Shown here piece after piece: positions 12,514-23,840 of a DNA stretch of 32,000 nucleotides (the stretch's first letter is position 1; the number at the start of each line of letters is the position of its first letter). This DNA comes from Geobacter metallireducens GS-15. GTDB taxonomy: Bacteria; Desulfobacterota; Desulfuromonadia; Geobacterales; Geobacteraceae. The notes beneath the pieces are model-generated. The model did no database searches. It worked only from the letters and a program-made list of their open reading frames with translations, and was not told where the DNA came from. The translations under genes and the position numbers were made by a program. The DNA is taken from NCBI RefSeq assembly GCF_000012925.1, contig NC_007517.1:810001-842000 (forward strand). Reading direction: 5' to 3'.

Positions 12514-14277
12514 TTACTTGTAAACCGTTATGGAAGTGGTTGTGGTGTTGCCGGCGGCATCGAAGGCTTTGGACAGTATGGTGTGGGCACCGGTAGCGAT
12601 TTTTCGCGTATTCCAGCTGTAAGACAGGCTGGTGACGCCTGTTTTGCTGGTTGCCAGCTTGCCGTCAATGTAGAGCTCGATGCGGCTTACCCCCACATTG
12701 TCGCCGGCGGTGATGGTGATCGTTGCACTGGTCCCGACCTTTGCGCCGTTGGCCGGGGAGGTGATGGCGACGGTCGGGGCGATGGTGTCGGGAGTGTTTG
12801 AAACCTTGACCGAAACAGCGCTTGATTGCCCCATGTTTCCCGCGCCGTCGAAGGCCACGGCCTCCAGGGTGTAGGAGCCGTCCGCCGTGGTGGTGGTGTC
12901 CCACGAGAAGGCGTAGGGCGCGGTGGTTGCCGTGGCGAAGGGGGCGCCGTTGATGCGGAGCTCCACCTTGGCCACGCCGACGTTGTCAGAAGCCGCCACC
13001 GCCACCGACGCGTTTCCTTTCACGATACTGGAACTCGCGGGGGAGGTGATCGATGCGGTCGGGGCAGTTGTGTCGCCGACCGGCACTGCATTCTGGGCAG
13101 CCGTGAGGCTCTTGAGGACGTTGATCCGGCCGTAGCCGAAGTACTGATCGAAGCCGGGGGTGCCGATGTCGTCGGCATTTTTGGTGATGATGTCCACCAC
13201 CTGGGCATTGGTCAGGGTCGGGTTAACGGAGAGGATCAGCGCGCCGAGCCCCGCCGCGATGGGAGAGGAGAAGGAGGTGCCGCTCACGCTCGCATAGCCG
13301 CCGCCGTTGGCGGTGGTGAGGATGGAGACGCCGGGGGCCGCGATATCGATGGTGGAGCCGTAGTTGGAAAAGCTCGCCTTGGCGTCGTTGGCGTCGGTGG
13401 CCGCCACCGACACGGCGTTGGTGCAGGCGGCCGGATAGTAGGGGGTGCTCGTGTTGTAGTTGGCTGCCGAGGCAAAGACAATGGCTCCTTTGTTCCAGGC
13501 GTAGTTCACGGCATTCTGGAGAGTCGAGGAACTGGTGGAGCCGCCGTAGCTGAGATTGATGATGCGGACCCCATGATCGGCGGCGTAGGTGATGGCACTG
13601 GCCATGCGCGAGTAGGTAGCGTAGCCGGTGGAATCCGCGATCACCAGGGGCATGATCTGGTTCTGCCACGCCACGCCGGCAACCCCGGCGCCGTTATTAC
13701 CCATGGCCCCGGCCGAGCCTGCGACCTTTGTCCCGTGCCCGGTCACATCGTGGGTATCGGTGTTGTTGAAGACAAAGTTGAAACCGGGGAGAAGCTTGCC
13801 GGCCAGGTCCGGGTGAGATGGATCGACGCCCGAGTCCAGGATGGCGATGTCAACGGAACTGGAGCCGGTGGAGATGTCCCATCCCGCCGGAGCGGCAATC
13901 TTGGGGAGATGCCACTGGGAGGCGTAGGAGGGATCGTTGGGAACCATTGTCTGCTCAGCCAGGTAATTCTCTTCGACGAACGTTACGTGGGGATTCTTGG
14001 CCAGAGCAGCCTTGACCTTTGCCCGGGCAGCAGCAGGGACCTTGATCCTCTTTACCCGGATCGGAGCGATTTCCTCGGCTTCCCGGGCGCCGGCTCCCTT
14101 GAGGACGGTGTCGGCATTGGCCTTGTGGACGCCAGCCTTGAACTGGACAAGGAGCTCATCGGTTACGAACTTCTGGGGAGGGGGTGCGGCACCGGCCATT
14201 CCCGCTGCCAGGCAGAGGATGCCGAGGGTGCCAAGGTGAAGGGTGATCTTTCCACAAACTCGTTTCGTGCAGCGCAT
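12514..14277 (-). CDS. Secreted subtilisin-like serine peptidase (S8 family) with I9-like propeptide and two C-terminal Ig-like domains, paralog A
   Basis: 587 aa. Signal peptide ...LCLAAGMAGA/APPPQ. Catalytic triad contexts AILDSGVD, HDVTGHGTKVAG, SGTSFSSPIAAG. The C-terminus has 2 x (D-T-APT-x-I-T-SP...DNVGV..VE..I.G....WNT/WDT...G.H/Y.L...A.D.AGN). GGAGGTG SD upstream. Confidence 0.9.
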   Translation of the reverse strand: MRCTKRVCGKITLHLGTLGILCLAAGMAGAAPPPQKFVTDELLVQFKAGVHKANADTVLKGAGAREAEEIAPIRVKRIKVPAAARAKVKAALAKNPHVTFVEENYLAEQTMVPNDPSYASQWHLPKIAAPAGWDISTGSSSVDIAILDSGVDPSHPDLAGKLLPGFNFVFNNTDTHDVTGHGTKVAGSAGAMGNNGAGVAGVAWQNQIMPLVIADSTGYATYSRMASAITYAADHGVRIINLSYGGSTSSSTLQNAVNYAWNKGAIVFASAANYNTSTPYYPAACTNAVSVAATDANDAKASFSNYGSTIDIAAPGVSILTTANGGGYASVSGTSFSSPIAAGLGALILSVNPTLTNAQVVDIITKNADDIGTPGFDQYFGYGRINVLKSLTAAQNAVPVGDTTAPTASITSPASSSIVKGNASVAVAASDNVGVAKVELRINGAPFATATTAPYAFSWDTTTTADGSYTLEAVAFDGAGNMGQSSAVSVKVSNTPDTIAPTVAITSPANGAKVGTSATITITAGDNVGVSRIELYIDGKLATSKTGVTSLSYSWNTRKIATGAHTILSKAFDAAGNTTTTSITVYK

Positions 14278-14438
14278 GCGCCACCTCCATGGGTTGAGTT
14301 TGCTTCCTACCTCAGAAACAGACCCCCGTACCTATGGAAGGCGGGCGTTGCTCTTCGACAACCCGGCTATCCTGACCATGGAGTCAGGACCCGTGGCTTT
14401 GCGTCCCCCGGTTACCCGAAGTTTGCCCTTTCGGAAAC
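13057..14438. repeat. Direct repeat copy 1 (about 1.38 kb, near-identical to 15912..17293)
   Basis: By-eye alignment at a constant offset of 2855 nt. Identity begins at the codons for ...VPVGDTTAPT and runs through the catalytic domain, the start codon and 161 nt of leader. It ends abruptly at 14438/17293. Confidence 0.9.
14353..14438 (-). promoter_or_regulatory. GEMM-I (c-di-GMP / 3'3'-cGAMP class) riboswitch aptamer, copy 1, in the leader of S8 peptidase A
   Basis: Minus-strand RNA: GUUUCCGAAAGGGCAAAC-UUCGG-GUAA-CCGGG-GGACGCAAAGCC-ACGGGU-CCUGAC-UCCAUG-GUCAGG-AUAGCCGGGUUGUCGAAG. It contains the conserved GGCAAAC and GACGCAAAGCC blocks, a GNRA-capped P2, a P3 hairpin and the AGCCGGGUU block in canonical order. 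Confidence 0.75.
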
Positions 14439-14497
14439 TTTCTTCTTTATCTGTTACTACATTTCGGCGTCAGGATGGATAACTTGAGGGGAAAAAA

Positions 14498-14513
14498 TGT
14501 GACTTGAATCACA
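14498..14513. promoter_or_regulatory. CRP/FNR-superfamily-type palindrome TGTGA-N6-TCACA upstream of S8 peptidase A leader
   Basis: TGTGACTTGAATCACA is a perfect match to the CRP core half-sites. It lies about 67 nt upstream of the aptamer 5' end and overlaps the stop codon of the Crp/Fnr-family gene. Confidence 0.5.
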
Positions 14514-15225
14514 AAAACGGGGGATTGAGAAAGAGGGTAGGTTTGAGGAGCATTCTTCTGCTGGCGAGGAGTTCGATCTCTCCAGCACGGGAGAAGCGGC
14601 CCAAAATGCGGCTTGCCGTCTCCCGGGATACCGATGCGTAACCGGCGACGGTGCGGTGGGTTAGCTTGATGCTGAGAATTTTGCCACGAGAATCGTCCAC
14701 GCCATACTGGGTTCCGAGATATTTGAGGACTCCCCTGACCTTCTGCTCGGCGGAGGAAAAGCGTGACAGCTTCATGAGGAACCATGATTCGCGCAGCCGC
14801 GAACAAAGCACGCTGATGATCTGCCGCAGCATCCGGTCGTTGGTGAGAATCTGGTTTTCAAAGGCTGTCCGGGCAATGAGGCCGACGGTGGCGTCTTCGT
14901 GGGCGATGAGCGTTGCCGGAGACGTGCGGCCGTCAAGGAGGGCCATTTCGCCGAAAAACGCCCCCTTGCGATGAATGGCAAGGACCTGTTCCGTGCCGTC
15001 GTTGCTGTGCTGGACTACCCGCACTTTTCCCGCAAGGACGAGGTACATGTAGTTGGCTGTATCGGCTTCATGAAGGATGGTGCGATTTTTCGGAAAGACC
15101 TGGATCTCAATGAGCTTGCTTAACGTATTGATGTCATCGGGTGGGAGGGGGGCAAAGAGCGGAATGGCGCTCAGAATCGATTGGAGAGGGGCCGGTATGG
15201 TTGTACGTGGATTCTTGGAGTTCAT
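14509..15225 (-). CDS. Crp/Fnr-family transcriptional regulator (cNMP-binding domain + C-terminal HTH)
   Basis: cNMP-binding signature GAFFGEMALLDGRTSPATLIAHEDATV. HTH: THRTVAGYASVSRETASRILGRFSRAGEI. Start placed at ATG 15225 because a strong sigma-70-type promoter lies inside the longer GTG-initiated ORF (15288). Confidence 0.85.
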   Translation of the reverse strand: MNSKNPRTTIPAPLQSILSAIPLFAPLPPDDINTLSKLIEIQVFPKNRTILHEADTANYMYLVLAGKVRVVQHSNDGTEQVLAIHRKGAFFGEMALLDGRTSPATLIAHEDATVGLIARTAFENQILTNDRMLRQIISVLCSRLRESWFLMKLSRFSSAEQKVRGVLKYLGTQYGVDDSRGKILSIKLTHRTVAGYASVSRETASRILGRFSRAGEIELLASRRMLLKPTLFLNPPFL

Positions 15226-15249
15226 GGTGAGATACCTGTCGGTTGCCGG

Positions 15250-15277
15250 ATTATAATGCAAGTATAGCAGCCTTGAA
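15250..15277 (-). promoter_or_regulatory. Sigma-70-type promoter of the Crp/Fnr-family gene
   Basis: On the minus strand: TTCAAG (15277..15272), 16-nt spacer, TATAAT (15255..15250). About 25 nt upstream of ATG 15225. Confidence 0.55.
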
Positions 15278-15304
15278 GATGAATACACGTAACAGGGTAA
15301 CAGA

Positions 15305-15368: not shown

Positions 15369-17132
15369 TTACTTGTAGACGGTAATGGTGGTCGTACCGA
15401 CGTTTCCGAACCAGTCGAAGGCCTTGGCGAGAATTGTGTGAGTGCCCGTGGCTACCTTGCGGGTGTTCCATGCATAGGTGAGGGTGTTGGTGCCGCTTGC
15501 CGTGGTGAGGAGGAGTCCGTCAAAGTAAAGTTCAATCTTTCTGACCGCCAGATTGTCTTTTGCTGAAATGCTGACCGTCGTTTTTGTGCCGAGCGTGATG
15601 CCCGTTGCCGGCGCTGTGATGGAGACCGTGGGCGCAATGGTGTCCAGTGAGTTGTACACGACGATTCCCGCTAGGCTCAATTCTCCCACGTTCCCGGCGG
15701 CGTCATAGGCTTTGACCGCGATAGTGTAGATGCTGTCGGGCAGGGTGGTTGTGTCCCATGAGAAGCTGAAGGGGGATGTGTTACTGGAGGCGTACAGTGC
15801 GCCGTTTATGTAAAGCTCTATCCGGGTGACACCGATGTTGTCGGCTGCCGCAACGTTGACTGTTACCGTTCCCTTGACCGTCGAGCCGGCGTTGAGCGAT
15901 GGGATTGAGACTGTCGGGGCAGTTGTGTCGCCGACCGGCACCGCATTCTGGGCAGCCGTGAGGCTCTTGAGGACGTTGATCCGGCCGTAGCCGAAGTACT
16001 GATCGAAGCCGGGGGTGCCGATGTCGTCGGCATTTTTGGTGATGATGTCCACCACCTGGGCATTGGTCAGGGTCGGGTTAACGGAGAGGATCAGCGCGCC
16101 GAGCCCCGCTGCGATGGGAGAGGAGAAGGAGGTGCCGCTCACGCTCGCATAGCCGCCGCCGTTGGCGGTGGTGAGGATGGAGACGCCAGGGGCGGTGATA
16201 TCGATGGTGGAACCGTAGTTGGAGAAGCTCGCCTTGGCGTCGTTGGCGTCGGTGGCCGCCACCGACACGGCGTTGGTGCAGGCGGCCGGATAGTAGGGGG
16301 TGCTCGTGTTGTAGTTGGCTGCCGAGGCAAAGACAATGGCCCCTTTGTTCCAGGCGTAGTTCACGGCATTCTGGAGAGTCGAGGAACTGGTGGAGCCGCC
16401 GTAGCTGAGATTGATGATGCGGACCCCATGATCGGCGGCGTAGGTGATGGCACTGGCCATGCGCGAGTAGGTAGCGTAGCCGGTGGAATCCGCGATCACC
16501 AGGGGCATGATCTGGTTCTGCCACGCCACGCCGGCAACCCCGGCGCCGTTATTACCCATGGCCCCGGCCGAGCCTGCGACCTTTGTCCCGTGCCCGGTCA
16601 CATCGTGGGTATCGGTGTTGTTGAAGACAAAGTTGAAACCGGGGAGAAGCTTGCCGGCCAGGTCCGGGTGAGATGGATCGACGCCCGAGTCCAGGATGGC
16701 GATGTCAACGGAACTGGAGCCGGTGGAGATGTCCCATCCCGCCGGAGCGGCAATCTTGGGGAGATGCCACTGGGAGGCGTAGGAGGGATCGTTGGGAACC
16801 ATTGTCTGCTCAGCCAGGTAATTCTCTTCGACGAACGTTACGTGGGGATTCTTGGCCAGAGCAGCCTTGACCTTTGCCCGGGCAGCAGCAGGGACCTTGA
16901 TCCTCTTTACCCGGATCGGAGCGATTTCCTCGGCTTCCTGGGCGCCGGCTCCCTTGAGGACGGTGTCTGAATTGTCCTTGTGGACGCCAGCCTTGAACTG
17001 GACGAGGAGCTCATCGGTTACGAACTTCTGGGGAGGGGGGGCGGCACCGGCCATTCCCGCTGCCAGGCAGAGGATACCGAGGGTGCCAAGGTGAAGGGTG
17101 ATCTTCCCACAAACTCGTTTCGTGCAGCGCAT
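15369..17132 (-). CDS. Secreted subtilisin-like serine peptidase (S8 family) with two C-terminal Ig-like domains, paralog B
   Basis: 587 aa, the same length as paralog A. Only 4 aa differences over the first ~405 residues (signal, propeptide, catalytic domain), but roughly half identity over the last ~180 residues (Ig-like domains). Confidence 0.9.
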   Translation of the reverse strand: MRCTKRVCGKITLHLGTLGILCLAAGMAGAAPPPQKFVTDELLVQFKAGVHKDNSDTVLKGAGAQEAEEIAPIRVKRIKVPAAARAKVKAALAKNPHVTFVEENYLAEQTMVPNDPSYASQWHLPKIAAPAGWDISTGSSSVDIAILDSGVDPSHPDLAGKLLPGFNFVFNNTDTHDVTGHGTKVAGSAGAMGNNGAGVAGVAWQNQIMPLVIADSTGYATYSRMASAITYAADHGVRIINLSYGGSTSSSTLQNAVNYAWNKGAIVFASAANYNTSTPYYPAACTNAVSVAATDANDAKASFSNYGSTIDITAPGVSILTTANGGGYASVSGTSFSSPIAAGLGALILSVNPTLTNAQVVDIITKNADDIGTPGFDQYFGYGRINVLKSLTAAQNAVPVGDTTAPTVSIPSLNAGSTVKGTVTVNVAAADNIGVTRIELYINGALYASSNTSPFSFSWDTTTLPDSIYTIAVKAYDAAGNVGELSLAGIVVYNSLDTIAPTVSITAPATGITLGTKTTVSISAKDNLAVRKIELYFDGLLLTTASGTNTLTYAWNTRKVATGTHTILAKAFDWFGNVGTTTITVYK

Positions 17133-17293
17133 GCGCCACCTCCATGGGTTGAGTTTGCTTCCTACCTCAGAAACAGACCCCCGTACCTATGGAAGGCGGG
17201 CGTTGCTCTTCGACAACCCGGCTATCCTGACCATGGAGTCAGGACCCGTGGCTTTGCGTCCTCCGGTTACCCGAAGTTTGCCCTCTCGGAAAC
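15912..17293. repeat. Direct repeat copy 2 (near-identical to 13057..14438)
   Basis: See copy 1. I counted about 8 mismatches in the ~300 nt next to the 3' junction and very few elsewhere. Confidence 0.9.
17208..17293 (-). promoter_or_regulatory. GEMM-I riboswitch aptamer, copy 2, in the leader of S8 peptidase B
   Basis: Same sequence as copy 1 (offset +2855) except for 2 substitutions (17262, 17285). One converts a predicted U.G pair of P2 into U-A, which is consistent with the proposed helix. Confidence 0.75.
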
Positions 17294-17350
17294 ATGTTTG
17301 TTATAAAACAGAGCAAAAAATACCAGATAATAGTGTGTTAATCAAGGAGT

Positions 17351-17366
17351 CGTGACGGTTGTCACA
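17351..17366. promoter_or_regulatory. CRP-type palindrome CGTGA-N6-TCACA upstream of S8 peptidase B leader
   Basis: CGTGACGGTTGTCACA lies about 65 nt upstream of the aptamer 5' end, at almost the same distance as box 1, although the surrounding sequence is outside the duplicated segment. Confidence 0.45.
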
Positions 17367-17506: not shown

Positions 17507-18049
17507 ATGAAAATCCTCCTCCATATGTGCTGCGGGCCGTGCGCCGCCTATCCGGTTGAGCAACTCCGGGGCCAAGGCGCGGCGGTGACCGGCTACTGGT
17601 TCAACCACAATATCCACCCCTATCAGGAGTACATGCGTCGTCGCGACACGGTGCGGGCGTATGCGGAAAAGGTGAGGCTCGATGTGATCTGGCGCGACGA
17701 GTACCGGCTGGAGGAGTTCCTGGCCGCGGTGGCCCAGAACCCGGACGATCGCTGCTTTTACTGCTACTTCTCTCGTCTTGATGCTGTCGCGGCCGCAGCA
17801 GCGGCAGGAGGATTCGACGCGTTCAGTTCCACGCTCCTCTACAGCCGCTACCAGAAGCATGACGCGATCCGCGACTGCGCCGAGCGGGCGGCAGAGCGTC
17901 ACGGCGTGGCCTTCCATTACGACGACTACCGGCGGGGATGGCAGGAGGGGATCCGCCTCTCCAAGGAGCTGGGGCTCTACCGCCAGCAGTACTGCGGCTG
18001 CATTTACAGCGAGAAGGAACGGTATCATCCGCGGGAAGGGGCGAAGTGA
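17507..18049 (+). CDS. queH: Epoxyqueuosine reductase QueH (DUF208 family)
   Basis: 180 aa. MKILLHMCCGPCAAYP (HxCCxPC) and YRQQYCGCIYSEKERY are hallmark DUF208/QueH motifs. Confidence 0.85.
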   Translation: MKILLHMCCGPCAAYPVEQLRGQGAAVTGYWFNHNIHPYQEYMRRRDTVRAYAEKVRLDVIWRDEYRLEEFLAAVAQNPDDRCFYCYFSRLDAVAAAAAAGGFDAFSSTLLYSRYQKHDAIRDCAERAAERHGVAFHYDDYRRGWQEGIRLSKELGLYRQQYCGCIYSEKERYHPREGAK

Positions 18050-18261
18050 TGCAGGGGCTCGGCAAATCGCTCATCGTCTTCGGGCTCATCATTGCCGCCA
18101 TCGGAGTCGCCCTCACCTTCGCCGGCAAGATTCCCTGGCTCGGCCGGCTTCCCGGCGATATCTACGTGAAGCGCGACAACTTCACCTTCTACTTCCCCCT
18201 CGCCACGAGCATCCTCATCTCCGTGATTCTTTCCCTCATCCTCTGGCTTCTGAGGAAGTGA
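18049..18261 (+). CDS. DUF2905-family small membrane protein
   Basis: 70 aa: MQGLGKSLIVFGLIIAAIGVALTFAGKIPWLGRLPGDIYVKRDNFTFYFPLATSILISVILSLILWLL. The ATG overlaps the queH stop by 1 nt (TGATG). Confidence 0.75.
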   Translation: MQGLGKSLIVFGLIIAAIGVALTFAGKIPWLGRLPGDIYVKRDNFTFYFPLATSILISVILSLILWLLRK

Positions 18262-18357: not shown

Positions 18358-19419
18358 GTGGCGATCAATGACATGAACGCGGTCTTTCTCGAAGTTATCG
18401 AGTGGTTCGACGACAGCGGCCGGGAGATGGTCCGCCGCATACCTCCCCAGGGGTCGGCGGAGATCAAATTCGGCTCCCAGTTGGTGGTGCGGGAGAGCCA
18501 GCGGGCGGTCTTCTTCAAGGACGGCAAGGTCGCCGACTGCTTCGGCCCGGGGCGTCATACCCTCACGAGCGCCAACCTCCCGATCCTGACCAAGCTCCTG
18601 GCGCTCCCCTGGGGGTTCACCTCACCCTTCCGCTGCGAAGTCTGCTTCGTGGGGATGCACACCTTTACCGATCTCCGCTGGGGGACCAAGGAGCCGGTCC
18701 CCTTCCGTGACAGCCGCTTCGGCATGGTACGTCTGCGGGCCTTCGGCTCCTACACCCTGCGGGTTGTGGAGCCCCAGCTCCTGGTGAACGCCCTGGTGGG
18801 GACCCGGGGGCTCTACACGGCCGCCGAGCTGGAGGAGTTCTTCCGGGACATCATCGTGGCGCGGCTGAACGACTACCTGGGTGAGACCATCGACACGGTC
18901 CTTGACCTCCCGGCCCGGTACGACGAGATGGCTTCAGCCCTCAAGGAGCGTCTTGCCGGGGATTTCGGCGGTTTTGGCATCGAGATGGCCGAACTCTACG
19001 TGAATGCGATTACGCCGCCGCCGGAGGTCCAGAAGGTCATTGACGAGCGCAGCTCCATGGAGGCGGCCGGGGACGTGGACCGCTATCTGAAGTTCAAGGC
19101 GGCCCAGAGCCTGGAGAAGGCGGCCTCGGCGGAAGGGGGCGGCGAGGCGGCCCAAGGGATGGGGCTCGGCCTTGGGGCCGGTCTCGGCATGATCCTCCCC
19201 GGCATGGTGGCCAACGCCATGGGGGGAGGGGGGGCGAAACCGGCACCGGCTCCTGCGGGAGGGGGGTGTCCCCGTTGTGCAACGCCGCTTGTGGCTGGGG
19301 CCAGGTTCTGCCACCAGTGCGGCGCTGCCGCGGAACCCGGCTTTTGCGCCGGCTGCGGCAAGGAGCTGCCGGGGGATGCCCGGTTCTGCCCCGGGTGCGG
19401 ACGGCCCGCCGGAGGATAG
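18358..19419 (+). CDS. SPFH/Band-7-domain protein (COG4260 'virion core protein-like' type) with Gly-rich linker and C-terminal double zinc ribbon
   Basis: 353 aa. GTG start with a GGAGG SD 5 nt upstream. The N-terminus ...[20 protein letters not shown]...[22 protein letters not shown] is typical of this SPFH subfamily. C-terminus: [19 protein letters not shown] and [19 protein letters not shown]. Confidence 0.8.
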
Positions 19420-19422
19420 CCG

Positions 19423-20140
19423 GTGACCGTGTCCTGCCCCCAATGCGGCGCCTCGGTCGAGGCCCGCACCGAGACCCGCTTCCACCACTGCCCCTTCTGC
19501 ACCTCCTCCTTTGTGGCGGAAGAGGGAAGGGGGATTGTCGAATATTACCTGGCCCACAGCCGGGATGACCGGTTGGCATGGAGCACCCTCGCCTCCACCC
19601 TGGAGGGTGGGGGGGATGATTCGCCGGTGGAGCGGCTCGGCTGCGAGTATCTCGTGGCCCCCTTCTGGCTCTCCCGCTCCGGCGGCGGAACGCGCCTCGT
19701 CCCGGCCCTGCGGCACCCGTGGTTCGGGATGGCATCCCTGGTTCTCCCCGGGGGGGATCTCCTCTACGTACCGAAGGGAAGCGATTTCACCCCGCCCGAC
19801 ATCCCCGTGGCCGAGGCCCTGGGGGGACGGGGCCGGGAGGGAGCCCGGCTCCTTGGCCCTCGTCCATCTTCCCCTCTATCTCCTCACCTTCCGCGTTGGC
19901 GGCAGTGATTGCCGGGCCGTGGTATCGGCGGTGGACCGCCGGGCGTATCTCCTGGATCCCCTGCCACGGAGCGCCGTTACGCTTCCGCTGCGCCACGTGG
20001 CGCTGGTGGTGGGGTATTCCCTGCTCCTTGTCATCGTCGGCATGGCGGTGAAGAACCACCTCCACCGGGCCATTGCCTTCGCCATCATCTTCGGAATGGC
20101 ATATTTCTCCTTCAATGCGTTTCTCCGGCGGGAGGCCTGA
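19423..20140 (+). pseudogene. Zinc-ribbon / C-terminal double-TM protein (paralog of the next gene), reading frame interrupted by an apparent 1-nt frameshift
   Basis: The N-terminal part (MTVSCPQCG...HHCPFC...APFWLSR...) is in frame 1 up to about 19830. The C-terminal part (...SLALVHLPLYLLTFRVGG... plus TM helices) is in frame 2 and ends at 20140. The total length of 718 nt is not a multiple of 3. Both halves align with the 20141..21118 protein. Confidence 0.55.
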
Positions 20141-21118
20141 ATGGCCGAGCAGCAGACCGTCACCATCTCCTGTCCCCAGTGTGCAAGCCCCTTCTCCTTC
20201 CGGGAGGGTGACCGCAACGCCCGGTGCCCCTCCTGCGGCACCTCCCTTGCCATCTCGGGGGAGGCGGGGATTTCCCGATTCTGGATCGAGGAGCGGATCG
20301 ACCTGGCCCAGGCCCGGGCCAATGCCCGCAGGGCCGTGGCCGCGGCAGGCGGCGACCCGGATGTGGTGGAGCGGCTCCGGTTCGAGGGGGGCGAGCTTTG
20401 CTTTCTCCCCTTCTGGCGGTTGCGGGGGCACGCCGCCGGCTGGCTCTGGACCGAGCGGGAAACGGTGACGCGGGAGGAAGAGTACGACGAGAACGGCATG
20501 AAGACGGTGCGGGAGGTGCGGGGCCCCAACCAGTGCGCCACCGAGAGCGTCATGGTGGCGGTGGACTACAGCTCTCCGGCCTGCGATGTGTCGCGCTTCG
20601 GCCTGCGGGGGATCGCCGTGGCCGGCGCCGTCCTTCCCCTCCGGGGGATGGATTTCGTTCTCGTCTCCGGCCGGGGGACGGTGTTCGACCCGGTGAAGGA
20701 CCCCGACGAGGTGCGGCGGGAGGCGGTGGCTCAGGCCAGGGCCAGGGGCGGGGGAAACGGGGTGATCCGCTCCACGGGGCGCTTCTCCCTCTGCGGGGAG
20801 CGCCTCGCCCTCATCTCGTACCCGGTCTGGAGCCTCACCTTCGCCCGTGACGAACGCCTCTATCCCGTCACCGTTGACGGGGTGAACGGCCGGGTTCTGG
20901 CGGGGCGGCTTCCGGGGAGCACTCGCCTGACGCTCCTGCGCCCCCTCCTTACGGTGACGCTCCTCGTGTTCGCCTTCACGCTCCATCAGCTTCTCGGCGC
21001 CGCCGTCGCCGTGGGGTTCCTGGGGTGGCTGGCCGCCAACGGCGGGCTCTCTCCGGAGCGGCTTGCCGGCTGGTTTTTCGCCCTCGTGGAGCGGCAGAGG
21101 GAGGTGGAGCTTGGCTGA
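20141..21118 (+). CDS. Zinc-ribbon protein with C-terminal TM helices, unknown function
   Basis: 325 aa. CPQCASPFSF...ARCPSCG zinc ribbon, FLPFWRLRG motif, ISYPVWSLTFARDERLYPVTVDGVNGRV, then hydrophobic LLTVTLLVFAFTL / AVAVGFLGWLAA. The ATG abuts the preceding stop (TGAATG). GGGAGG SD. Confidence 0.7.
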   Translation: MAEQQTVTISCPQCASPFSFREGDRNARCPSCGTSLAISGEAGISRFWIEERIDLAQARANARRAVAAAGGDPDVVERLRFEGGELCFLPFWRLRGHAAGWLWTERETVTREEEYDENGMKTVREVRGPNQCATESVMVAVDYSSPACDVSRFGLRGIAVAGAVLPLRGMDFVLVSGRGTVFDPVKDPDEVRREAVAQARARGGGNGVIRSTGRFSLCGERLALISYPVWSLTFARDERLYPVTVDGVNGRVLAGRLPGSTRLTLLRPLLTVTLLVFAFTLHQLLGAAVAVGFLGWLAANGGLSPERLAGWFFALVERQREVELG

Positions 21119-21764
21119 CCGGCACGACCTCCGCGTCATCCCTCTCCGCTGTCCGGCCTGCGGCGCCACCCTTGAAGCGGGCGGAGAGGATGTCATCTAT
21201 CCCTGCAAGCCGTGCGGCTCCTACCGGGAACTGGTGGGGGAAGAGCTGGTGCAGCGGGAGATTGTCCACGTGGCAGGCCCCGACTTGGACGCTCCCCCGG
21301 CCGCGCGGCGGGAGATGCCGCGGCTCCCCTTCTGGGTCTTCCCCTTCCGGGCGGTCACGGTCGGTGGTGAGGTGGCCACCCTCCGGGAGTATCTGGCCCT
21401 GGCGGGCTCAGTCTCCCCGCTCTCGCCGGGCCGGGGGGAGAAGTCTCCCCTGGTCTTTGTACCGGCCTTCGCTGCCAAGTCAGCCTCGCTTCTCAGGGCC
21501 GGTCGCCTCCTGACCCTCCGATCCCCCGCCTTTGGTCGCTCCGCCGGCGTCCCTTCGCGCATTGCCCCCATCGTCTTCCGTGAGGCCGATGCCCGTGCCC
21601 TGACCGAAGCAGTGGTGCTCGCCACCGTCGCCACGGAGCGGCGCGTGAACCAGCGGTTTCTCGACTCTTTTGCAGTTCGGTGCGGGGCCGGCCGACTCCT
21701 CTCGATCCCCTTCGACGACCGGGAAGGAAGGCTCCATCAGCCCGATCTCGATCTGGAGATATAG
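21111..21764 (+). CDS. Soluble zinc-ribbon protein, third paralog, unknown function
   Basis: LRCPACGATL...YPCKPCG zinc ribbon, LPFWVFPFR motif, LLSIPFDDREGRL. I prefer TTG 21111 (GGAGG SD 6 nt upstream, 8-nt overlap with the preceding stop) over the listed ATG 21063. Confidence 0.55.
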   Translation: MADRHDLRVIPLRCPACGATLEAGGEDVIYPCKPCGSYRELVGEELVQREIVHVAGPDLDAPPAARREMPRLPFWVFPFRAVTVGGEVATLREYLALAGSVSPLSPGRGEKSPLVFVPAFAAKSASLLRAGRLLTLRSPAFGRSAGVPSRIAPIVFREADARALTEAVVLATVATERRVNQRFLDSFAVRCGAGRLLSIPFDDREGRLHQPDLDLEI

Positions 21765-21840
21765 GGAAGATGCTTGTCTTTTTCGCCATTCCTGCTACGT
21801 TTTAACCGTGTGATGACAGACCATTGAGGAGGATTCGACC

Positions 21841-22161
21841 ATGATCGAGCTTATCGAAAAAGCGGTTCTGACCGGCCTGGGGGTTGTGTCCCTCTCCCAG
21901 AAGAAGGCCGAGGAGTTGGTGTCCGACCTGAAGGAGAAGTACAAGGTGGGGGAAGACGAGGGGAAGGCGCTCGTGGAGAAACTCCAGAACATGGCCAAGG
22001 ATGCCCGTGAGCGGGTCGCCGAGATGGCGGACCAGGAGGTCAAGAGGGCTATCGAGCGGCTCGGCCTCGTCCCACGCGAAGAGTACGACCGTCTCGTGAA
22101 GCGGGTGGATGTCCTGGAGGCGAAGCTCTCCACCTGCACCGAACCCGGCACTGAATGCTGA
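21841..22161 (+). CDS. Phasin-like / COG3937-type small coiled-coil protein
   Basis: 106 aa: MIELIEKAVLTGLGVVSLSQKKAEELVSDLKEK...LGLVPREEYDRLVKRVDVLEAKL. GAGGAGG SD. The 3' end overlaps the UbiB start by 7 nt. Confidence 0.6.
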   Translation: MIELIEKAVLTGLGVVSLSQKKAEELVSDLKEKYKVGEDEGKALVEKLQNMAKDARERVAEMADQEVKRAIERLGLVPREEYDRLVKRVDVLEAKLSTCTEPGTEC

Positions 22162-23840
22162 CGTTCATCCAGCTCAACCGCAATATTCGGAGCCTGCGGC
22201 GCTACCGGCAGATTGTCCGCGTCCTCTTCAAGTTCGGCTTCGACCATGCGCTGGAGCTCATGGGGCTCTCCCAGTTCGTGGCCCGGGGGCGCAAGCTCTT
22301 CCGCAGGCCGGCGTCGGAGCTTGCTCTCCTCTCGCCTGCCGAGCGGATGCGCCTCTCTCTGGAGGAGTTGGGACCCACCTTTGTGAAGCTGGGGCAGATC
22401 CTCTCCACCCGACCCGACGTCATTCCCCGCAGCTTCATCCTGGAATTCGCCAAGCTCCAGGATCAGGTGCCGTCGTTCCCCTTCGAGGCGGTGGAGGACC
22501 AGATCCGCAAGCACCTGGGACGGGAGCCGTCCGAGTGCTATTCCTTTATCGACTCCGAGCCCCTGGCCGCCGCCTCCATTGCCCAGGTCCACCGGGCCCG
22601 GCTCGTCTCCGGCGAGGATGTGGTCATCAAGGTCCGCCGTCCCGGCGTCGTGGGGCTCGTGGAGACCGATGTGGACGCCATGATGGGGCTCGCGATGCTG
22701 GCCGAGCGGCACCTCCCCGGCAGCGACCTCTACGATCCCGTGGGGCTCGTGAAGGAGTTTGCCCGCACCATCCGGCGAGAGATGGATTTCTCCCGGGAGG
22801 CCCATACCATCGAGAAGTTCGCCGAGAACTTCGCCGGCGACCCCACCCTCCATTTCCCCACGGTCTACTGGGGCCAGACCGCCGGCGGGGTCCTGACCAT
22901 GGAGCACGTGGACGGGATCAAGGTCTCGGACACGGCGGCCCTGGATGCGGCGGGGCTCGACCGCAAGCTCCTCGCCCGGCGGGGGGCCGATGCCTTCCTC
23001 AAGATGGTCCTCATCCACGGCTTCTTCCACGGCGACCCCCATCCGGGCAACGTCCTGATCCTCCCCAACAACGTCATCTGCCTCCTGGACTACGGCATGG
23101 TGGGGCGCCTCGACACCCAGCTCAAGGGGTACCTGACCGACATCCTCCTGGCCATCGTGCAGCGTGATGTGGACGAGGTGATCTCGCTGCTGCTCTACTC
23201 CGGGGACATTACCGACACCCTCGACACCCGGGCCCTGCGGCGGGACCTGTCGGGGCTCATCGACAGCTACTACGAGGTGCCGCTCCAGCAGATCGAGGTG
23301 GGGCGGATGCTCCTTGAATTCCTGGAGGTGATCACCACCTACCACATCCGGTTCCAGCCCGACCTGATGCTCCTGGCCAAGGCCCTGGTGGCCATCGAGG
23401 GGATGGGGCGGGAGCTGGACCCCGACTTCGACATGGTGGAGCACCTGCGTCCCTTCATGAAAAAGGCCCTGCGGGACCGGTTCTCGCCGGAACACCTCGT
23501 GCGCGAAATGGGCTCGCACATCACCTCCTACGTGACCCTGTTCCGCAATCTTCCCAAGGATTTGAAGGAGTTCCTCAACCGGATCAATCGCAACAAATTC
23601 AAGATCGATCTGGAGCACCGGGGGCTCGACCGGGCCCTCAGGGACTTCGACAAGTCCATCAACCGCCTCTCCTCCAGCCTCATCATCGCCGCCCTTATCG
23701 TCGGTTCATCCATCATCATGCAGACCGACAAGGGGCCGAAGATCTTCGAATTTCCCATCTTCGCCTTCATGGGATACACCATCGCCGGCTTCATCGGCCT
23801 CTGGTGGGTCTTCGCCATCATCCGCTCCGGCAGGCTGTAG
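22155..23840 (+). CDS. ubiB: ABC1/UbiB-family atypical protein kinase with C-terminal TM helices
   Basis: 561 aa. EELGPTFVKLGQILSTRPDVIP, PLAAASIAQVHRA, REMDF..E, FFHGDPHPGNVL, LDYGMVG are typical ABC1/AarF/UbiB motifs. Two C-terminal TM segments. Confidence 0.85.
   Translation: MLTFIQLNRNIRSLRRYRQIVRVLFKFGFDHALELMGLSQFVARGRKLFRRPASELALLSPAERMRLSLEELGPTFVKLGQILSTRPDVIPRSFILEFAKLQDQVPSFPFEAVEDQIRKHLGREPSECYSFIDSEPLAAASIAQVHRARLVSGEDVVIKVRRPGVVGLVETDVDAMMGLAMLAERHLPGSDLYDPVGLVKEFARTIRREMDFSREAHTIEKFAENFAGDPTLHFPTVYWGQTAGGVLTMEHVDGIKVSDTAALDAAGLDRKLLARRGADAFLKMVLIHGFFHGDPHPGNVLILPNNVICLLDYGMVGRLDTQLKGYLTDILLAIVQRDVDEVISLLLYSGDITDTLDTRALRRDLSGLIDSYYEVPLQQIEVGRMLLEFLEVITTYHIRFQPDLMLLAKALVAIEGMGRELDPDFDMVEHLRPFMKKALRDRFSPEHLVREMGSHITSYVTLFRNLPKDLKEFLNRINRNKFKIDLEHRGLDRALRDFDKSINRLSSSLIIAALIVGSSIIMQTDKGPKIFEFPIFAFMGYTIAGFIGLWWVFAIIRSGRL

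Follow-up and report, generated by a model that had tools for sequence, protein, structure and literature searches.

A putative SPFH membrane module with three YdjG-like proteins in Geobacter, and its frameshifted form in Geobacter metallireducens

To our knowledge, soluble SPFH proteins of the Band_7_1 type are common and barely studied, and the sole characterised example is YdjI (SamI) of Bacillus subtilis. A gene for such a protein begins a four-gene cassette in Geobacter metallireducens GS-15, in which the other three genes encode zinc-ribbon proteins. The cassette lies within a 32-kb stretch of the chromosome (positions 810,001 to 842,000 of NC_007517.1), referred to here as the window. 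Coordinates are window positions, and all of the cassette genes are on the plus strand.

The closest described system is the pspA-ydjGHI locus of B. subtilis (also called pspA-samGHI). YdjI has so far been tied to PspA and to two membrane partners of unclear wider distribution. It is soluble and forms membrane foci only when YdjG and YdjH are present, and in two-hybrid assays YdjG binds YdjH, and YdjH binds both YdjI and PspA (PMC8581546). Loss of SamI leads to constitutive stress signalling that depends on SamGH, indicating that SamI restrains SamGH (bioRxiv 10.64898/2026.02.06.704340). The architecture of YdjG has been described by Ravi et al. (PMC11237479).

Two other systems invite comparison. 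The pairing of SPFH and NfeD genes is widespread in bacteria and archaea (PMC2636767), and in these operons (stomatin/QmcA-YbbJ, FloT-YuaF), as in Geobacter, an SPFH scaffold gene is tightly coupled to the gene of a dedicated membrane partner. However, the Geobacter partners are unrelated to NfeD, with no Pfam match and no OB-fold match, and the Geobacter SPFH protein appears to be soluble and cytoplasmic, whereas the NfeD-type SPFH proteins are anchored at the N-terminus. The likeness to PspA-PspBC of Escherichia coli is an analogy only, in that small membrane proteins are combined with a peripheral oligomer that is recruited to them or restrains them under membrane stress. The peripheral protein of Geobacter is an SPFH protein instead of an ESCRT-III protein, and no homology to B. 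subtilis PspA was detected, while PspB and PspC were not compared.

A four-gene cassette related to YdjI and YdjG

The cassette has the following features.

18358..19419, plus strand: gene 1 (SPFH), 353 aa, GTG start, stop TAG at 19417-19419
19423..19908, plus strand: gene 2, N-terminal reading frame, open reading frame (ORF) of 161 aa, GTG start at 19423
19821..19826, plus strand: gene 2 frameshift site, a run of six G (G6) against G5 in the orthologues (+1 insertion)
19827..20140, plus strand: gene 2, C-terminal part in the +1 frame, from the ORF reading and a match of 125 bits to the gene-2-family hidden Markov model (HMM), stop TGA at 20138-20140
20141..21118, plus strand: gene 3, 325 aa, ATG start at 20141, stop TGA at 21116-21118
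21111..21764, plus strand: gene 4, 217 aa, TTG start at 21111, 8-nt overlap with gene 3

Each of the four starts has a Shine-Dalgarno sequence of the GGAGG type 5-7 nt upstream. Genes 1 and 2 are separated by a gap of 3 nt, genes 2 and 3 by a gap of 0 nt, and genes 3 and 4 overlap by 8 nt. The cassette genes show translational coupling, and the close packing and strong Shine-Dalgarno sequences reported in an earlier note on this DNA, written from the sequence alone, were all found.

Gene 1 is predicted to encode a soluble homologue of YdjI/SamI with the same architecture. Residues 33-235 match the Pfam family PF13421 (Band_7_1) with 227.4 bits (Pfam cutoff 24) and an E-value of 1.9e-67, and no hydrophobic segments were found in a scan of the protein. 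A Gly-rich low-complexity linker at about residues 255-300 leads to two CxxC...CxxC zinc ribbons at residues 304-350 (DZR, 2.1e-10; Zn_Ribbon_1), so that the tail has four CxxC motifs. This agrees with the earlier description of gene 1 as an SPFH protein with a Gly-rich segment and two zinc ribbons. Gene 1 and YdjI align over their full length (BLASTP, 107 bits, E 4e-31, 25% identity, 340 columns), and the order of SPFH domain, low-complexity linker, and zinc ribbon is common to both.

Sequence comparisons indicate that genes 2-4 are genuine paralogues, as had been proposed. The N-terminal ORF of gene 2 matches the N-terminus of gene 3 with a BLASTP E-value of 7e-10, and a second pairwise comparison among the N-termini gives 1e-3. 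Profiles were built for the three families from about 80-120 sequences each, and hhalign aligned them over nearly their full length. The gene 3 family matches the gene 2 family at 99.9% (E 2e-34) and the gene 4 family at 97.8% (E 1e-12, 191 columns), and the gene 2 and gene 4 families match at 96.2%. Each of the three proteins has a single CPxC...CxxC ribbon, a helix, a strand with (L/A)PFW, and the conserved PA motif, and all of the motifs that had been quoted for them are present.

The proteins differ in their membrane segments. Genes 2 and 3 also encode a hairpin of the pattern 'hYPhW..h.F....Y.h.VDG..G.V', which is followed by two hydrophobic helices. In the gene 3 protein the zinc ribbon is followed by an alpha/beta domain that includes LPFW, then by the hairpin ISYPVWSLTF...VDGVNGRVLAGRLPG and a transmembrane (TM) hairpin, and last by a conserved cytoplasmic tail, ER..EVELG. 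The gene 4 protein has the zinc ribbon, LPFW, and the alpha/beta domain with no TM segment. Two hydrophobic segments are found in 58 of the 67 gene-2-like and 86 of the 111 gene-3-like proteins, while there are none in 80 of the 85 gene-4-like proteins and 29 of the 32 SPFH proteins. The TM helices expected for genes 2 and 3 and the soluble character expected for gene 4 are therefore borne out as segments, but the helices of gene 2 lie in a shifted frame, as described below.

The gene 3 family is large and has gone without a name of its own. A word-indexed search with gene 3 found 48 relatives, mostly from Geobacteraceae. When 1.84 billion representatives, clustered at 50% identity, were searched exhaustively with a HMMER profile, 2199 clusters matched at E <= 1e-3 and 477 did so at E <= 1e-10; most of these proteins have 320-380 aa. 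Where relatives of gene 3 are named by the sources, the name is 'RPC12/RpoP', which reflects the zinc ribbon alone. At least 13 of the 16 long representatives (>= 440 aa) are single-chain fusions of a gene3-like domain to a complete gene4-like domain (P0099, P0130, P0147, P0152, P0185, P0193, P0195, P0213, P0219, P0225, P0230, and others), and many of them lack the TM hairpin between the two domains. Because the two paralogues are fused in one chain, this Rosetta-stone evidence suggests that they act together.

Searches with genes 2-4 in Pfam, NCBIfam, PADLOC, and PHROGs gave only sub-threshold zinc-ribbon matches. The Pfam search that had been suggested thus returned Band_7_1 and DZR/Zn_Ribbon_1 for gene 1 and only sub-threshold zinc ribbons for the other three. 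The AlphaFold2 models are confident (gene 3, pLDDT 83; gene 4, pLDDT 87.6 and pTM 0.85), and a Foldseek search of the PDB with both of them gave nothing at E <= 1e-3, with only zinc-ribbon-sized fragments aligning. The NTF2/YpeB-like fold that was assigned to YdjG (PMC11237479) was not confirmed structurally by Foldseek for genes 3 and 4. Inspection of the invariant residues of gene 3 revealed no evident catalytic motif, and neither the family libraries nor the Foldseek searches with the gene 3 and gene 4 models gave a recognisable catalytic or signalling domain for genes 2-4. The membrane anchors contradict a DNA-binding, 'TFIIB-like' role for these proteins, and so does their lack of a further DNA-binding domain.

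Family profiles place genes 2-4 in a single superfamily with YdjG/SamG. The B. subtilis pspA-ydjGHI locus was obtained from metagenome contigs by means of a ydjG primer given in PMC8581546. A gene-3-family HMM built from 123 sequences gives YdjG 80.7 bits, which is above the score of the gene 2 orthologue of G. sulfurreducens. In hhalign the gene 3 family and a Firmicutes YdjG family of 20 sequences match at 99.0-99.5% (E 7e-18 to 9e-22); the 268-287 aligned columns begin at the second zinc ribbon of YdjG and end at its C-terminal TM segment. YdjG matches the gene 2 family at 97.7% and the gene 4 family at 95.3%. A broad family profile is needed for this result, as a narrow alignment of gene 3 against the single YdjG sequence gives a 33-column match at 82%. 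YdjG has two N-terminal zinc ribbons, while genes 2-4 encode a single ribbon that aligns to the second of these and is an architectural variant within the superfamily. The C-terminal membrane anchor of YdjG has its counterpart in the two hydrophobic segments of genes 2 and 3, and gene 4 has none.

The cassette therefore resembles the B. subtilis locus in two component types and departs from it in several ways. Gene 1 shares with YdjI/SamI the Band_7_1 SPFH domain, the lack of a TM segment, the low-complexity linker, and the C-terminal zinc ribbon. Genes 2-4 share with YdjG/SamG the N-terminal zinc ribbon, the helix, the PFW motif, and the alpha/beta domain; further likenesses are the 'YPxW...DGxxG' hairpin and the C-terminal membrane anchor. 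In both loci the genes are adjacent and on one strand. In contrast, Geobacter has three YdjG-like paralogues, one of them soluble, where Bacillus has one; the paralogues have one ribbon and a TM hairpin, while YdjG has two ribbons and a single C-terminal TM segment; and the gene order is reversed, with the SPFH gene first. The host is a Gram-negative deltaproteobacterium, hence regulation by sigma-W is lacking.

The cassette also lacks PspA and the TPM-domain protein YdjH. A phmmer search with B. subtilis PspA, which has the sensitivity of a single sequence, found no PspA in the window or in about 100 related loci except those of Bacillus, and the rest of the genome was not searched. This agrees with the statement in the earlier note that no PspA gene is present. 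A YdjH HMM matches the Bacillus loci only, with none in the window or the related loci, and PF04536 is not found in the cassette proteins. The earlier note had offered pspA-ydjGHI as the closest analogy, and the relationship is stronger than that, since for two component types (YdjI and YdjG) there is true homology.

Disruption of gene 2 in G. metallireducens

Gene 2 had been described as one ORF, which is not the case. The interval 19423-20140 has 718 nt and is not divisible by 3, and two frames had been spliced unnoticed, with APFWLSR in one and VHLPLYLLTFRVGG in the other. The first frame, the 161-aa ORF, encodes the zinc ribbon, the helix, and the APFW motif (APFWLSR), followed after about 19826 by an out-of-frame tail that runs to a premature stop. 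This N-terminal ORF scores 206 bits with the gene-2-family HMM, and a scan for hydrophobic segments found no TM segment in it. The second frame extends to 20140, beyond the frame of the N-terminal ORF, and contains VHLPLYLLTFRVGG and the TM helices; this C-terminal part carries the beta-hairpin block LVHLPLYLLTFRVGG and two hydrophobic segments. A possible restart is TTG at 19853, where the source annotations call a 95-aa ORF.

The frame is lost through one extra G at 19821-19826. In DNA alignments the window reads CTGGGGGGAC (G6) where G. grbiciae reads CTGGGGGAC (G5), and the corresponding runs are also one base shorter in G. benzoatilyticus, G. sulfurreducens, and the loci L015 and L099. 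When one G is removed in silico, the gene reads through as an ORF of 238 aa, whose product shares about 96% identity with the orthologue in G. grbiciae. The repaired gene differs from it by 16 synonymous and 10 non-synonymous codon changes and has no further stops or indels. All of the orthologues examined outside G. metallireducens (G. grbiciae, G. benzoatilyticus, G. sulfurreducens, L009, L010, L014, L015, and L099) are single in-frame ORFs of 238-242 aa. The identical frameshifted gene 2 is found in strain RCH3, whose GeomeDRAFT_2122 is 100% identical to gene 3, and in five independent read-set assemblies (Logan). This recurrence shows that the frameshift is a real mutation of the species rather than a sequencing error, and the lesion is lineage-specific, because all close relatives are intact. 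Gene 2 is thus disrupted in G. metallireducens by a recent insertion of a single G. At best the gene would yield a soluble N-terminal piece of 161 aa, perhaps along with a TM piece that is initiated separately, so that this species probably has an impaired or altered module.

Two other interpretations of the frameshift were considered. The cassette could be a decaying relic in G. metallireducens, with the frameshift marking loss of function of the whole module, and the fixation of the lesion in the GS-15-like, RCH3, and five read-set assemblies while close relatives are intact fits this idea. We consider it improbable, as genes 1, 3, and 4 are intact and identical across assemblies, so that decay of the whole cassette is possible but not indicated. 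Neither half of gene 2 has acquired further stops or indels, and synonymous codon changes relative to G. grbiciae outnumber the non-synonymous ones, so the lesion must be very recent, or else the pieces are still used; function could persist through a split gene 2, with a soluble N-terminal part and a TM part from TTG 19853, or through occasional +1 slippage. Regulated expression of gene 2 by programmed +1 ribosomal frameshifting or transcriptional slippage at the G6 run is exceedingly improbable. On GGGGGG a tRNA-Gly that reads GGG can move one base downstream and pair again perfectly, after which the +1 frame yields the ancestral protein, but outside G. metallireducens the orthologues have G5 or an interrupted run and stay in frame. 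The shift site is thus not conserved, which argues against programmed frameshifting. Moreover the site has no stimulatory in-frame stop or hungry codon; an internal Shine-Dalgarno sequence was not evaluated.

Distribution and genomic neighbourhoods

The three zinc-ribbon genes form an ordered triad in bacteria and archaea. A scan of GTDB species representatives gave 80 loci, and fractions of this sample are indicative only, since the 12-sequence subset and the pattern YYPLW..RY that were used bias it. Anaerolineae and other Chloroflexota account for some of the loci, and the others belong to Ignavibacteria/Bacteroidota or to archaea, the last including Methanoperedens, ANME-2, Hadarchaeota, and metagenome-assembled genomes labelled Thermococci and Methanobacteriota. 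An HMM scan of six-frame ORFs found the gene2-, gene3-, and gene4-like ORFs adjacent, on the same strand, and in this order in all 80 loci, as far as the contigs reach. In 23 of the 80, namely in Ignavibacteria/Bacteroidota and most of the archaeal loci, the triad is immediately preceded by a Band_7_1-type SPFH gene, and a C-terminal SPFH fragment is found at the 5' edge of the archaeal-type contigs L011 and L012. The cassette genes are therefore co-conserved across phyla and domains, the property on which the earlier note had let its proposal depend. Outside Firmicutes the YdjG/SamG superfamily typically takes the form of a fixed set of three paralogues, often coupled to SPFH and in the sampled loci never to PspA. 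No relatives were found in 2.9 million viral contigs and 72,556 plasmids.

The C-terminal module of the SPFH protein is variable, and it is always preceded by a Gly/Met/Gln-rich linker. There is one zinc ribbon in B. subtilis, two in Geobacter, and three in L009, L010, and most archaeal loci (L027, L048, L056, L063, L067, L070, and L082).

Other genes are found beside the triad in particular groups. In 20 Anaerolineae loci without SPFH (L033:9585-10685 and 19 others) a PLD-like gene with two HKD motifs (PF13091, 3e-54) and an N-terminal signal or lipoprotein-like sequence is located about 15 nt 3' of the gene-4-like gene. A gene for an 850-aa HerA/FtsK-like ATPase is located further downstream of the triad in 13 Anaerolineae loci. 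In 12 Ignavibacteria and archaeal loci (L041:891-1421, L070:6287-6817, L096:994-1524, L079:5175-5693, and eight more) an all-helical protein of roughly 176 aa, with the motifs IPGFxGY and GYSG, is encoded directly 5' of SPFH. It is absent in Geobacter, belongs to no Pfam family, and has a sub-cutoff NCBIfam match to the Leptospira LIMLP_15305 family (3e-15). This protein may be a fifth component of the module. It is not similar to PspA or to the phasin-like protein of the window, and a relationship to either was rejected.

The genes next to the cassette in the window are listed below.

17507-18049, plus strand: QueH, upstream context only (Pfam)
about 18049-18261, plus strand: DUF2905, small membrane protein, upstream context (Pfam), with a stop/start overlap with QueH
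21841-22161, plus strand: phasin-like helical protein of 106 aa, downstream context (PF05597, 3.4e-9); link to the module uncertain
22155-23840, plus strand: UbiB/ABC1, downstream context (Pfam), with its start overlapped by 7 nt by the phasin-like gene

Synteny from QueH and DUF2905 through the cassette to the phasin-like gene and UbiB is stable across Geobacter species, where gene 3 identity is 77-100%. The four-gene order and the tight spacing are kept in Geobacter species and also in L009 (55% identity in gene 3) and L010 (49%), while the flanks change. The QueH-DUF2905 pair is found in front of the cassette in every Geobacter-type locus and, despite its distance, in L009; L010 and other phyla lack it at this place. 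L010 also has the phasin-like gene 3' of its cassette, though no UbiB, while the phasin-like gene is missing from L009. No terminator-like site was found between gene 4 and the phasin-like gene (21764 to 21841).

Further upstream in the window are two genes for subtilisin-like (S8) proteases of 587 aa, at 12514-14277 and 15369-17132, both on the minus strand. Their N-terminal 400 or so residues are nearly identical, while the C-terminal Ig-like repeats have diverged. The upstream regions are duplicated as well, with near-identical short ORFs at 14243-14482 and 17098-17355, and an ORF for a Crp/Fnr-type regulator (14509-15288, minus strand) sits between the two protease genes.

Proposed function and significance

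The cassette is probably the Geobacter form of an SPFH membrane module of the SamI/SamG type, in which membrane paralogues dock or regulate an SPFH oligomer. The N-terminal zinc-ribbon and alpha/beta domains of genes 2-4 would come together as a hetero-oligomeric platform, lying on the cytoplasmic side of the inner membrane and held there by the TM hairpins that genes 2 and 3 supply. The platform would dock the SPFH oligomer, which itself has no predicted membrane anchor, and the oligomer would in turn organise or restrain the platform, giving a membrane-homeostasis or envelope-stress module. In Geobacter the module would work without an operon-encoded PspA or TPM protein. We infer the platform and docking model by homology from the experiments in B. 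subtilis. Control may run in either direction, with the triad anchoring SPFH or SPFH acting as a brake on the triad.

Several observations weigh against this proposal. The experiments behind the docking model come from B. subtilis, whereas Geobacter and the other members of the triad type are placed in it by homology. The contact of YdjI and PspA in B. subtilis is YdjH, which is absent here, so that a docking role for YdjG-like proteins is an extrapolation. No SPFH gene lies within 8 kb of the triad in 57 of the 80 loci (Anaerolineae), where unlinked SPFH genes were not looked for, and an adjacent SPFH gene is therefore not strictly needed by the triad. In the SPFH genes of Ignavibacteria (L079-L097) a SHOCT-like tail without cysteines replaces the zinc ribbons, and thus contacts between zinc ribbons cannot be the universal interface. 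In addition, a consensus scan for promoters and terminators found no promoter-like sites and gave terminator-like matches only inside coding regions.

In the strongest alternative, the triad itself would be the main machine, sensing or acting at the membrane as a complex of its own, and SPFH would be only an optional brake or regulator, with an output in signalling or in the handling of lipids or membrane proteins and not in microdomains. The loci without adjacent SPFH favour a triad with its own activity, as do the PLD-like gene and the HerA/FtsK-like ATPase gene that follow it in some of them. The restraint of SamGH by SamI in B. subtilis points the same way, and the gene3-gene4 fusions show paralogues cooperating irrespective of SPFH. 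However, genes 2-4 have no recognisable catalytic or signalling domain, and SPFH is directly upstream and tightly spaced in Geobacter, Ignavibacteria, and most archaeal loci, and on balance we regard this alternative as unlikely. An anti-phage defence or other conflict system built on the SPFH protein is very improbable. Some SPFH and zinc-ribbon proteins do occur in conflict systems, and there are weak sub-threshold zinc-ribbon matches to PADLOC and PHROG models. Against this, PADLOC-DB 2.0 gives only zinc-ribbon-sized matches with E >= 0.003, the chromosomal synteny is stable across Geobacter species, relatives were lacking in the viral contigs and plasmids searched, and the cassette has no nuclease, NTPase, or toxin domain.

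A broader interpretation of the SamI/SamG-type module can be put forward tentatively. The ordered YdjG-like triad, with a short two-TM protein, a long two-TM protein, and a soluble one, could be an ancient autonomous membrane complex of bacteria and archaea and a new class of SPFH partner, from which the B. subtilis SamG-SamH-PspA system is derived. If so, the triad would be comparable in status to NfeD for stomatins, and it would recruit varied accessories: Band_7_1 SPFH proteins with one to three zinc ribbons or a SHOCT tail, the 176-aa LIMLP_15305-like helical protein, and the PLD-like enzyme. SamG of B. subtilis, with the TPM protein SamH and PspA, would then be a reduced, derived version.

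The component families are already known from the B. subtilis system. A search of the literature on Band_7_1/PF13421/COG4260, on Geobacter SPFH proteins, and on SPFH with zinc ribbons found no description of the module, and not described in the literature searched are the three-paralogue arrangement, the SPFH coupling in bacteria and archaea, the gene3-gene4 fusions, and the independence from PspA. The earlier note knew of no characterised function for the combination, but it is not wholly uncharacterised, as work in B. subtilis covers two of the component types (PMC8581546; bioRxiv 10.64898/2026.02.06.704340).

These results place YdjG/SamG in a large superfamily that has no dedicated Pfam, NCBIfam, or PADLOC model and in which 2199 clusters match the gene 3 profile alone. 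G. sulfurreducens, with all four genes intact, is a genetically tractable organism in which to test the module, and G. metallireducens is a natural frameshift mutant of gene 2. Overall the B. subtilis system can be recast as one variant of a broader SPFH-partner module.

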